From positions 47,430,001 to 47,494,000 of the forward strand of contig OX597833.1 in the NCBI GenBank assembly GCA_951406725.2: a stretch of 64,000 nt of DNA, written 5' to 3'. The notes under the pieces were generated by a model. It saw only the letters and a program-made list of their open reading frames with translations. It did not search any database and was not told the origin of the DNA. Positions 13,632 to 60,053 of this stretch are shown piece by piece. The position numbers were made by a program, and so were the translations under genes. Position 1 is the stretch's first letter; each line of letters starts with the position of its first letter. Source of the stretch: Octopus vulgaris (lineage: Eukaryota).

Positions 13632-14085
13632 ATAAACAACTAATAAATATGGGCAAACGAAAAAATGTCTAATACCAAATATGTCGAAATTAGACACATT
13701 GTCCATATAACCATTATAATTTTTTCACACTACGCACGCTACTCAAAAAAGGTCGACAGAAATTTCTAAAAAATTCCATTATTACCATATCGGACCGATT
13801 TCAGGGTTAGTTCGTAAGAACCCTTCCTTCTTCAGTGATAAATGTGGCAAAGAAATAAATGAGACACTTTAGAAATTTCTGTCGACCTTTTTTTGAGTAG
13901 CGTGCGTATTGTGAAAAAATTATAATAGTTATGGACAATGTGTCTAATTTCGGCATATTTGGCATTAGAATTTTTTTCATTTGCCCTTATTTATTAGTTG
14001 TTTATAAATTTAACCTTTAAAGGTATTTTTTAATATGCTGGCCACTGATAAAATTTATTTTTTCGAAAAAATTTTATCCTACATT
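13632..14085. mobile_element. Fold-back module in (TA)n with hammerhead-like motif in the spacer (Penelope-like terminus)
   Basis: 13632-13770 is an inverted repeat of 13868-14005. Minus strand 13788-13840 reads TATCA CTGAAGA AGGA AGGGTT..AACCCT GAAA TCGG TC CGATA. Confidence 0.6.
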
Positions 14086-14349
14086 AAATATATATATATA
14101 TATATATATATATATATAAATATATATGATATAATATAAATAATATATAAATATATGCATATATACATACATATATATGTATGTATATATGCATATATGG
14201 GTACAGGACATCAAAAAAACGTTGAACACAATGAGAAACGAAAACAGAAACGGACTTTTTTTTCAAACAACGAAAATAATAGAGAAACAAGACATACAAC
14301 ACAAGGAATATTCCCCTTCTTCAGTTGTCCCTGTTTCATCTACACCCAG

Positions 14350-14540
14350 GTATTTCGTCTGCCATTACGTTCTGAGTTCAAATTCCGCCGAGGTCGACTT
14401 TGTCTTTCATCCTTTCGGGGTCGATTAAATAAGTACCAGTTACGCACTGGGGTCGATATAATCGACTTAATCCTTTGTCTGTCTTTGTTTGTCCTCTTGT
14501 CCTCTCTGCGTTTAGTCCCTTGTGGGTAGTAAAGAAATAG
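14350..14540 (+). mobile_element. Group B SINE unit (local duplicate of 17062-17251)
   Basis: Has the GTCGACTTTG.CTTTCATCCTTTCGGGGTCGAT core and shares private variants with the 17062 unit. Confidence 0.85.
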
Positions 14541-14899
14541 GTACCAAACTATATATCTCCCCTGGTAATTGATTTCGCTGAATGTGAACCAGAAAAGTTG
14601 AAATGTTGAGAATCTTTTTAACTTGGGTCTTTAATAGTTTAAACGAGTCTTTTCGCTCAACATGTTAACGTAATCCGTTTGTTAAATACGCGATCATGTT
14701 TGATGTATAGGATGTGTATTAAATATTGTTCAATTGTTTGCTGCTATAGCAGAGTTCTGAATCTATTAATGATGGTGATGATAACAACCCAAACGATTGC
14801 CACAATTACAATCATAAGTAGAACAGAATTACGAGTATAATAATGACCGTAATGTTAGCGAGCTTAGGACTAACGCAATAATAACAATTTATAATTAAT

Positions 14900-56296: not shown

Positions 56297-59200
56297 CTAG
56301 CAGTATCGCCCGGCGTTGCTCGGTTTGTAAGGGAAATAACTATATAAGCATTTTTAGAGAGTTATAGCCAAAAAATAGCAAAAAAATGCATTAAAAATTG
56401 AAAAAAAATTAAGGTAAATTTTTTTTTTAAATCGTTGACACATCGTAGATATTTTTAGAGAGTTACTTCCCTTATATAAAAGCGAAAAAAATGCATTAAA
56501 ATGGAAAAATATGATGGTAAATTTTTTAAAAATCGTAGACTCATCGTAGACGCGCGCTAATACCCAGAAGGGCTCGATATGAATCACGACTATAAGATAC
56601 CCGCTTTTGGTTAAACTGCACCGCAAAATGTGGGAGTAGTTACGAATCTAAATCGAAGGGGACAGACACACAACTTCACTCTTATATAAAGATGCTTTTT
56701 TTTTTCAGTGATAGAGTTAGATTTATGAAGGTCTTCAGTAGAAAATCCTTCGAATTCTGACTCGCTGCTTGATATAATGAAATTCGTATCCATTTTTTGT
56801 CAGAATTACAAATTTTGAAAAGACAATAGGAACAAATTTCGGAAAAAAATCTCCCATAATTCACGGAATTAAAATTACACTTTGATTTTTGTACAAAACT
56901 GTATTTGAAGTGTTTACGAAGTATAATACGTGTTTTCACGAATGTACTAAAGAGATTTACTCTGATATTCTCATTTAAATATGAATAGGTAAATTCGGGC
57001 GGTTTGGTAACGAAAGGGTTTATATAAGTGTCGTCTGTTTATACATAAACACTGTTTCATAGTTTCAGTTTAGTCTTCCTCAAATCACTCTGTCGCTAAT
57101 TTACTCTCTTCCAAGAACATTTTCACTCACTGTTATCTGTTAGCTCCCCATACATTTTACTCATGTATCTATCAGCGTGATAGAGAGAAACAAATATTAC
57201 ATCTAGCTTCACTTTATTCGTTGCCCACTGTGTGTGTGCGTTTGCGTGTGCTGTAAACCAGACTAAGAAAAGCATTTGACACACACACCAGAATGTGAGT
57301 TTTCTGTAAATTTTGCTTAATTGGAGTTTAAATTTTAAAAACTGGACCTGGCATGACGCGATGCATTGTACTCTTAAAAATGCCAGGTAAATTGTAATTG
57401 AAGAAATCCTATATTGTAGATTTGTATAACTCCCAAAGGGAGGCAGATAAAATCTGCCTTTTATAATAAGACTAGCATTATCGCCCGGCGTTGCTCGGGT
57501 TTGTAAGGGAAATAACTATATAAGCATTTTTAGAGAGTTATAGCCAAAAAATAGCAAAAAAATGCATTAAAAATTGGAAAAAAATTAAGGTAAATTTTTT
57601 CTAAATCGTTGACACGTCGTAGATATTTTTAGAGAGTTACTTCCCTTATATAAAAGCGAAAAAAATGCATTAAAATGGAAAAATATGATGGTAAATTTTT
57701 TTAAAATCGTAGACTCATCGTAGACGCACGCTAATACCCAGAAGGGCTCGATATGAATCACGACTATAAGATACCCGCTTTTGGTTAAACTGCACCGCAA
57801 AATGTGGGAGTAGTTAGGAATCTAAATCGTAGGAGACAGACACACAACTTCACTCTTATATAAAGATGCTTTTTTTTTCAGTCATAGAGTTAGATTTATG
57901 AAGGTCTTCAGTAGAAAATCCTTCGAATTCTGACTCGCTGCTTGATATAATGAAATTCGTATCCATTTTTTGTCAGAATTACAAATTTTGAAAACACAAT
58001 AGGAAATGAGTAAAATAAAAACCAATTTACCTTTTCTGTCCGTCCGTGTGTCTTTGCAAATGTGTTGGAATGATAAGTGAGTTGTGATTTGGCGCCTTTT
58101 TTTACTAATAACAAACACACACGTGTTTGTATGTAGTTGTATGTGTATGTAGTTGTATATGTATGTGTATGCGTGTGTGTGAAGAATGACACACACACAC
58201 TCACGCACGCACACATGTACATCAATGCTTTCGGAGTGATATGTTAAAATATTGAGTTTTCTCGAATTTTGTCTTAATTGGTGGTAAAATTGAAAGAAAT
58301 TTTTTATGGCATCACCCACTGAAGTACTCTGAAAAATCTTAGGTAAACTCTAATTGAAGAAATTGTGTATTTATTTGTTTCTGTTTGCTGTGTTTTTTTA
58401 TTTTTTGAGTAGTGGTTTAAATACTTTCACTTTAGTCTTCCTCAAATCACTTTGTCGCTATTTACTTTCATTTTATTCGTCGCACACTGTGTGTGTGCGT
58501 TTGCGTGTGGTGTAAACCAGACTAAGAAAAGCATTTGACACACACACCAGAATGTGAGTTTTCTGTAAATTTTGCTTAATTGGAGTTTAAATTTTAAAAA
58601 CTGGACCTGGCATGACGCGATGCATTGTACTCTTAAAAATGCTAGGTAAATTGTAATTGAAGAAATCCTATATTGTAGATTTGTATAACTCCCAAAGGGA
58701 GGCAGATAAAATCTGCCTTTTATAATAAGACTAGCAGTATCGCCCGGCGTTGCTCGGGTTTGTAAGGGAAATAACTATATAAGCATTTTTAGAGAGTTAT
58801 AGCCAAAAAGTAGCAAAAAAATGCATTAAAAATTGAAAAAAAATTAAGGTAAATTTTTCTTTAAATCGTTGACACATCGTAGATATTTTTAGAGAGTTAC
58901 TTCCTTATATAAAAGCGAAAAAATGCATTAAAATGGAAAAATATGATGGTAATTTTTTTTTAAATCGTAGACTCATCGTAGACGCGCGCTAATACCCAGA
59001 AGGGCTCGTTTGTTATTCTGGGTAACTTTCTGTAAAATTATTAAAATTTTGTTCAAACATCGCTATAGAAAATGGGTTATTAGCTAATATTCAATTGGGT
59101 ATACAACAAAATTTTACGATAGAATTTGTTATTCTGGGTAACTTTCTGTAAAATTATTAAAATTTTGTTCAAACATCGCTATAGAAAATGGGTTATTAGC

Positions 59201-59867
59201 TAATATTCAATTGGGTATACAACAAAATTTTACAATAGAATTTGTTATTCTGGGTAACTTTCTGATACCCATAATAATATTTATGGCAAAATAGGCCTTA
59301 ATTTCATTTAAGATTGTGGGAAATAACAAACTATCCTTTCTTTCGGTTTGTTTACGTTTAGCGTAATGATTTCAAATAGGCTCATTCGAAAAAGTAAATA
59401 GAAATAGTCTAAGGCTTTACTCTTCTGGGAAAGTCAGTGGCTTGGTCCAGTTTCTTCAGAAAACTCACCGAAAGAAACAGTTTTTAAATTTTCACTCCAT
59501 TCAGGTACCAATTCGTTTTCTTTATCGCTGTCGGATTCACTGTTTTCACTTTAATAGCTGCCAACTTGCAAAACAAAGGAGGAGAAGGGTGATAGCGTCA
59601 GTGAAACAATTCGCTCCCTTTGTGTGTGTGTGCGTTTGCGTGTGGTGTAAACCAGACTAAGAAAAACATTTGACACGCACACCAGAATGTGAGTTTTCTG
59701 TAAATTTTGCTTAATTGGAGTTTAAATTTTAAAAACTGGACCTGGCATGACGCGATGCATTGTACTCTTAAAATTGCTAGGTAAATTGTAATTGAAGAAA
59801 TCCTATATTGTAGATTTGTATAACTCCCAAAGGGAGGCAGATAAAATCTGCCTTTTATAATAAGAGA
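56297..59867 (-). mobile_element. Composite non-autonomous Helitron trimer (56297-57471, 57472-58730, 58731-59865)
   Basis: Exact head-to-tail junctions at 57471/57472 and 58730/58731; flanked by (TA)n on both sides. Confidence 0.9.
59009..59264. repeat. 116-bp tandem repeat (2.2 copies) inside the last Helitron unit
   Basis: TTTGTTATTCTGGGTAACTTTCTG starts at 59009, 59125 and 59241. Confidence 0.92.
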
Positions 59868-60017
59868 TATATATATATATATATATATATATATATATAT
59901 ATATATATATATATATATATATAGGGAGAGTTTACGAAAACAAACACAAAAGACGAAGACAGGTGGTGTACAAAACAAACAGATGTATTAGTATAACGCT
60001 CAGGAATAGAAAAAAGT

Positions 60018-60053
60018 CTTTTACGTTTCGAGCCTACGCACTTCTACAGAAAG
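60018..60053 (-). ncRNA. Hammerhead-like motif (CTGTAGA core variant), same module family as 50735-50950
   Basis: CTTT CTGTAGA AGTGC-GTAG-GCTC GAAA CG TA AAAG. Confidence 0.5.

Follow-up and report, generated by a model that had tools for sequence, protein, structure and literature searches.

The 64,000-nucleotide stretch of Octopus vulgaris DNA analyzed here (contig OX597833.1, positions 47,430,001 to 47,494,000; hereafter the window) is repeat-rich animal DNA of ~37% G+C, in which lie about a dozen motifs with the layout of hammerhead ribozymes (Table 1). An earlier note had listed ten such cores, and all ten were located where it had placed them. They fall into four families (A, B/B', C, and D) in seven insertions, and so the note's count of at least four dissimilar modules holds for families, although the motifs at 18.6 and 45.3 kb prove to be a single family and that at 32728 a relative of those at 50859 and 60049. 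Judging from their architecture, the motifs are likely the ends of several octopus repeat families—5'-truncated Penelope-like termini—and the altered catalytic cores denoted A6U and U9 behave as properties of whole families.

Table 1. Hammerhead modules and associated repeat arms in the window, in order of position
Feature	Coordinates	Strand	Description
Family D insertion	13628..14088		inverted arms 13628-14009; ~80-nt tail, right arm only; both ends at (TA)n
Family D hammerhead	13782..13841	-	canonical core CTGAAGA at 13835; 6-bp stem I; 11-nt palindromic stem III; site AUA at 13788
Family A hammerhead	18632..18668	-	core CCGACAA at 18664 (U4C + G8A; G8A not in partner arm); element end 37 nt past site
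Family A hammerhead	18804..18841	+	core CCGACGA at 18808 (U4C); element end 109 nt past site
Family B minimal hammerhead	32698..32732	-	core CCGACGA at 32728, plus extra A; stem III ACGT
Family A hammerhead	45346..45382	-	canonical core CTGATGA at 45378; 2-bp stem II; short end 37 nt past site
Family A hammerhead	45406..45443	+	canonical core CTGATGA at 45410; long end 106 nt past site
Family C 128-bp unit	48669..48796	+	core CCGATGA at 48745; loop II CAAATA; first stem I pair broken
Family C second unit	49444..49571	+	core CCGATGA at 49520; boundaries identical to first unit; 95% alike
Family F inverted pair, tentative	50188..50345		only GAAA and stem III half; one-sided tail
Family B' minimal hammerhead	50828..50863	-	core CTGTAGA at 50859 (A6U), plus extra A; end at (TA)n 97 nt past site
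Family G inverted arm	53056..53241	-	cut off at core position 6; also C8; restores two stem pairs; ~65-nt tail, this arm only
Family G hammerhead, not in earlier note	53250..53300	+	swapped G3-C8 core GTGAACA at 53257; 7-bp stem I; stem III AATATT
Family B' second, independent insertion	60018..60053	-	core CTGTAGA at 60049; private stem II change at 60040; end 98 nt past site
Family E hammerhead, not in earlier note	60269..60373	-	core at 60367; 74-nt stem II domain; U at position 9
Family E inverted arm	60470..60609	+	begins at core position 5; also U9

The core CUGANGA / GAAA / UH is intact in three of the ten noted motifs (13835, 45378, and 45410); five carry U4C and two A6U. A short palindromic stem III is common to all ten, as well as to families E and G, and these sequences are predicted to self-pair at -1.7 to -13.9 kcal/mol. 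The earlier description of stems that largely keep their pairing has to be qualified for stem I, whose first pair beside the core (N1.1-N2.1) forms in eight motifs and is broken in both family C copies. A GTC cleavage site had also been read at 13788; the cleavage triplet there is AUA, and the GTC sits within the stem III palindrome. An extra base after A9, together with a G10.1-C11.1 pair, is present in B, B', and the left arm of G, while stem II of A, C, and D starts with an A-U pair or a mismatch, as in some rows of published alignments. The family A inverted pairs at 18.6 and 45.3 kb are 88% alike, and the two B' copies 89.6% alike with different flanks. Of the two added families, E matches the Rfam model Hammerhead_1 weakly (19.3 bits, E 0.088, below the cut-off of 34), and a descriptor that requires long stems but accepts any Watson-Crick pair at positions 3 and 8, its cut-off fitted to 53257, finds that family G motif alone, against three matches in 500 shuffles. 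Within the long stem II domain of family E, at 60300-60359 on the minus strand and at 60520-60553, lies a GTCCC/GGGAC hairpin, whose loop ACCCAT could pair with the stem II 3' strand as a possible competing fold.

How far such motifs exceed chance was gauged with a strict and a relaxed type I hammerhead descriptor, each compared with 200 dinucleotide shuffles of the whole window and 200 of 1-kb blocks. Since the descriptors were composed after the motifs had been seen, and the copies are related rather than independent, the counts describe motif enrichment rather than prove it. The strict descriptor matches six places, against shuffle means of 0.07 (whole-window) and 0.12 (1-kb block) and a maximum of 3; the relaxed one matches nine, against means of 1.14 and 1.42 and a maximum of 5. 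The shuffle comparison that the earlier note had proposed thus comes out in its favor, and its hammerhead topology is supported in eight of the ten motifs by the relaxed descriptor (five by the strict), but not in the two CCGATGA copies, where the first stem I pair is mismatched. An extra strict match at 56281 on the minus strand was discarded as a plain hairpin with G5A, probably a chance hit, and so were TTTATAA/TTCATAA matches at eight places to a loose descriptor with long stem II, which have no G5 and all lie inside one ~430-bp repeat with terminal inverted repeats. Among 150 listed of 205 Rfam matches to the whole window there is no hammerhead, those listed being microsatellite-driven microRNA matches, and Rfam run locally returned no hammerhead for family G or family C. 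A degenerate B/B' pattern matched neither metagenome contigs (0) nor viral contigs (0).

Evidence for family-level cores comes from four sequencing runs, each labelled as a different organism, whose contigs were aligned to 59926-60605 at 80% likeness. The resulting table lists 40 of 131 rows; even in the run where they stand highest, the lowest of these are at 36.5-37% (11 rows computed, the others checked by hand). Summed contig depth over 60018-60040 is 1.15-7.0 million in all four runs, with individual listed contigs mostly at depth 3-66; this sum is not a copy number, and is taken only as an order of 10^4-10^5. Private letters of the window are readily corrected by the pile-up: the stem II change at 60040 in 97.8-99.7% and position 60068 in 95.3-99.2%. 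Across core positions 60042-60049 of family B', by comparison, no row for an alternative letter stands among the 40 listed, and none of 24 listed loose ends out of 1645 falls at 60039-60046. Because the lowest listed rows reach 36.5-37% and none of them shows A6, we infer that canonical A6 makes up less than ~36% of B'. Since the pile-up corrects private letters yet gives none at A6U, and A6U is common to two insertions with different flanks (50859 and 60049), this core is likely family-level and probably the commonest form of the hugely abundant B' family, as the earlier note had supposed for CTGTAGA. U9 is family-level in the same way. In family E the majority letters bring back C3 (in 81.9-87.8%) as well as one pair each in stem I (92.2-93.4%) and stem II (62.4-74.0%), and no alternative-letter row is listed at position 9 (60361), where both arms carry U9. 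Loose ends of B' do occur at 60010-60014 and 60054-60067, where many contigs match the hammerhead and diverge just outside it, indicating several subfamilies around one conserved motif.

For the remaining variants the evidence comes from copies within the window. U4C is found in both arms of the 18.6-kb family A insertion and in both family C units, and so predates those insertion events in two families; it occurs in three of the seven insertions (p 0.022 under a simple decay simulation, 0.010 with B' counted once). The proposal that the CCGACGA core is fixed within its family finds indirect support in this early origin and recurrence, but the other family A insertion, at 45.3 kb, is canonical. 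The G3-C8 swap of family G has its C8 repeated in the partner arm, which also repairs two stem pairs.

Several features point to Penelope-like elements as the source of these motifs. Both family A insertions stop at the same two distances from the cleavage site, 37 and 106-109 nt beyond it, and the inverted pairs of D and G bear a tail on one arm only. The full combination of 5' truncation, inverted partner, and one-end tail is seen in A (two insertions), D, and G; E is inverted with no tail mapped, and B and B' are single and truncated. Measured from the cleavage site, the elements run on for 37-153 nt before ending at (TA)n. The motifs had been placed in or beside microsatellites, and what holds is a positional link: a (TA)3+ run lies within 110 nt 3' of the site in seven of ten motifs (background 0.178) and within 160 nt in eight (background 0.232). 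Penelope-like elements are described as having partner copies that are inverted and truncated, a tail at one end, and microsatellites as targets, the role of hammerheads in the endonuclease-bearing members being described as unclear (10.1101/2021.04.23.441226). Penelope-like DNA amounts to 6.83% of the O. vulgaris genome in 190 families (PMC13282606), from which ~4.4 kb would be expected per 64 kb; the modules here total ~2.7 kb by their own coordinates. The population is therefore dense and diverse, as had been claimed, but ordinary for octopus. Because no Penelope reverse transcriptase (RT) or GIY-YIG frame was found among the 150 longest complex frames scanned for protein domains (of 522 with 50+ residues), membership rests on architecture; one RT match (43292-44443) belongs to a separate long element.

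The Penelope-type assignment made earlier is accordingly supported by architecture for A, B/B', and D, and likewise for E and G, but fits family C less well. The fixed ends of its 128-bp units, a CAAAUA loop, and a lengthened stem I suggest a canonical, retrozyme-like origin, as does a 9-bp direct repeat at the two ends of the first unit (48658 and 48794), possibly a target duplication. No tandem array in the window contains any of the motifs, and the two family C units share only 128 bp across 775 bp.

We regard it as probable that the altered cores are master-copy mutations of Penelope-like termini, amplified because self-cleavage is probably dispensable for copying. A close parallel is offered by the element of the green anole, in which mutating the hammerhead leaves insertion in vitro unaffected, insertion draws mainly on uncut RNA, and cleavage needs protein (PMC11167929). 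A Penelope RT-endonuclease would nick AT-rich DNA, and reverse transcription would start from either of two positions that lie downstream of the hammerhead. Since sequence is kept on both sides of the cleavage site, copies spanning it would have been made from uncut RNA, so that weak or dead cores would cost nothing in cis and may even help. As anole hammerhead mutants insert normally, a master copy with a damaged core could likewise still multiply, and might be favored, which would account for A6U and U9 without new chemistry. Both would be expected to be slow or dead, and U4C and G3-C8 to keep some activity. In essence, a change at a normally fixed catalytic letter in what is likely the commonest form of so abundant a family suggests that these elements can spread without cutting their own RNA. 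The earlier idea of naturally altered catalytic cores thus survives in its first half—the cores are altered—while tolerated losses are a more economical reading than altered catalysis.

A number of observations weigh against this explanation. A much looser scan gives a weak excess, with 56 matches where shuffles give 38.5 (score 8) and 4 where they give 1.4 (score 13), and for most copies the predicted lowest-energy folds do not contain the full hammerhead, monomer and dimer folding yielding mostly other structures; at 50859, for instance, the U6-A7 stretch is predicted to pair with the 3' flank. Covariation within B/B' (three sequences) amounts to one pair and is not significant (160 of 500 shuffles), and the six core deviations over 7 insertions x 11 positions are not above a few percent of decay. 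Family A has canonical copies too (the 45.3-kb insertion), U4C in B rests on one copy (32728) and G3 on one arm (53257), and for U4C and G3-C8 all evidence falls outside the read pile-up. Within the pile-up, with 40 of 131 rows listed, a sizeable minority of copies could be canonical at A6 or A9, and the alignment favors the window's letters, a bias that would lower the canonical share further. No Penelope RT or GIY-YIG gene was seen among the frames scanned, although stubs are expected to have none, and tails here are 50-80 nt against the published 30-40 bp.

A bolder proposition, which we consider unlikely but worth stating, is that octopus Penelope-like families have repeatedly fixed non-canonical cores—A6U at ~10^4-10^5 copies, U9, U4C three times, and G3-C8—with the fold kept under selection, either as protein-rescued ribozymes with relaxed cores or as a noncutting scaffold recognized by the reverse transcriptase. 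Such motifs would form a large class hidden from fixed-core searches. Narrower, and in our view rather improbable, is the idea that the variant cores are simply working ribozymes, with U4C, A6U, U9, and G3-C8 offset by stem III dimerization or by binding of an element protein, and activity maintained by selection. Family-majority stems are intact, U4C recurs across three families, and stem III can self-pair in the predictions above. The core pair is retained in G3-C8, of which the engineered double swap (C3G/G8C) gives partial rescue of cleavage, and the anole hammerhead cuts only with protein present (PMC11167929); moreover, U4C sustains infectivity in a viroid, and activity, though low, is measurable in a phage variant with A6C (PMC3088659). 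Nevertheless, no change that might compensate for A6U or U9 is visible, intact stems are equally explained by a young master copy with one core mutation, and published minimal hammerheads cut poorly even with canonical cores (PMC4209133).

Postinsertion decay of canonical cores in single copies seems very unlikely as a general explanation. It does describe some letters well, in that three changes are private to their copies (G8A at 18664, U3 at 60367, and the stem II change at 60040), the core deviation total lies within the neutral range, and U4C in B and G3 are each seen once. For A6U and U9, however, pure decay is contradicted: A6U recurs in two insertions with different flanks and goes uncorrected by a pile-up that corrects private changes at 95-99.7%, and U9, like U4C, is present in both arms of its insertion. 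U4C, furthermore, creates a CpG, in a window whose observed/expected CpG ratio is 0.84; A-to-I editing on the opposite strand is another conceivable source of this change. Least probable of all is that the motifs are independent short elements with a borrowed hammerhead, such as retrozyme monomers or repeats resembling short interspersed elements (SINEs). In its favor, no linked Penelope gene was found among the scanned frames, B' is SINE-like in abundance, and the units of family C have a fixed length of 128 bp, share their CAAAUA loop with the Rfam type I consensus, and include one that may be flanked by a 9-bp target duplication. Against it, the variable 5' ends, inverted partners, and one-sided tails of A, D, and G are Penelope-type, and a 2026 preprint derives animal retrozymes from Penelope termini, so that the two readings overlap (10.64898/2026.07.22.740005).

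The surroundings of the modules are a mixture of gene and repeat sequence. At 5290-5505 on the minus strand lies the first coding stretch of a monocarboxylate transporter 12-like gene, upstream of which the hammerhead modules are situated; all 72 residues of this exon are 100% identical to Octopus bimaculoides monocarboxylate transporter 12, and the O. vulgaris protein matches at 100% over 64% of the query. A frameshifted retroelement without long terminal repeats (non-LTR) occupies 43122-45314 on the minus strand (RVT_1, E 9.7e-23), and the 45.3-kb family A pair adjoins its 5' end. Broken PIF1-type helicase frames, which we take to be Helitron-like, are present at 11325-13013 (minus strand), 61380-61775, and 62238-62546, with a Pif1_2B match at 61380; one frame of 442 residues falls outside the set scanned for protein domains. 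The ~430-bp repeat mentioned above, ~90% alike between copies, with ~30-bp terminal inverted repeats and internal CCCTAA-like runs, is presumably a miniature inverted-repeat transposable element or similar; it recurs at 2856-3277, 19859-20287, 25098-25529, 26663-27074, 27294-27712, 29885-30296, and 41561-41991, with parts at 21746-22685. Nested local duplications (91-98%) with internal ~100-bp repeats fill 54077-59918. The family D tail, a (TA)n run, and another repeat form a composite (13940-14346) that is duplicated in inverted orientation at 17899-18272 with 89% likeness. Finally, inverted-repeat stubs with no hammerhead lie at 49568-49763, 50381-50598, 35592-35898, 3874-4067, and 34266-34526. 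The first two of these abut (TA)n, that at 50381-50598 with a one-sided extension, and may be Penelope-type ends stopping short of the motif.

Much of this architecture has precedents: hammerheads in Penelope-like elements have been published, as have their division into many families and cores with U3-A8 at the family level. The closest match is with the minimal type I hammerheads of metazoan Penelope-like elements (Cervera and De la Pena 2014, PMC4209133), which share the type I topology, the short palindromic stem III, the extra base after A9 with G10.1-C11.1 (here in B, B', and G), and the multiplicity of families per genome. They are likewise mostly lone or in opposite-strand pairs 100-700 bp apart, and the family-level core variant among them is U3-A8. 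C4, U6, U9, and G3-C8, in contrast, appear in none of the 44 alignment rows compared, and the fixed-core descriptor used there would miss them; octopus is absent from the supplementary file searched. Fixed-core searches of this kind therefore undercount such motifs. Natural core variants collected elsewhere (Perreault et al. 2011, PMC3088659) include U4C in a viroid and a change at position 6, A6C, in a phage, both with reduced activity. These are rare single examples, core mutants in repeats were discarded there as cryptic, and A6U, U9, and G3-C8 are not in the passages compared. That study is the only report of natural U4C that we found, and no description of octopus hammerheads or of natural A6U, U9, or G3-C8 came to light in a search that left most subscription literature, which may list such cores, outside its reach; the G3-C8 hammerhead of PMC3884650 is an engineered variant. 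Family-level A6U and U9 cores are thus apparently undescribed in the literature searchable here.

Animal non-LTR retrozymes (PMC7229834; 10.64898/2026.07.22.740005) resemble family C in their canonical loop II and extended stem I, and dispersed monomers of them are known, but family C is not in a tandem array and carries U4C and a broken first stem I pair. A further comparison is with Poseidon of the green anole (Frangieh et al. 2024, PMC11167929). There, targets are AT-rich, as here, and the tail is set by two start sites, as is proposed for the octopus copies, the hammerhead lying ~85-92 nt upstream of the RT start. Poseidon has a canonical core and a complete gene, whereas the octopus copies are stubs with 50-80 nt tails and family-wide variant cores. 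A very abundant octopus family whose commonest core lacks A6 would be the genomic counterpart of the dispensability of cleavage seen in vitro with the anole element.

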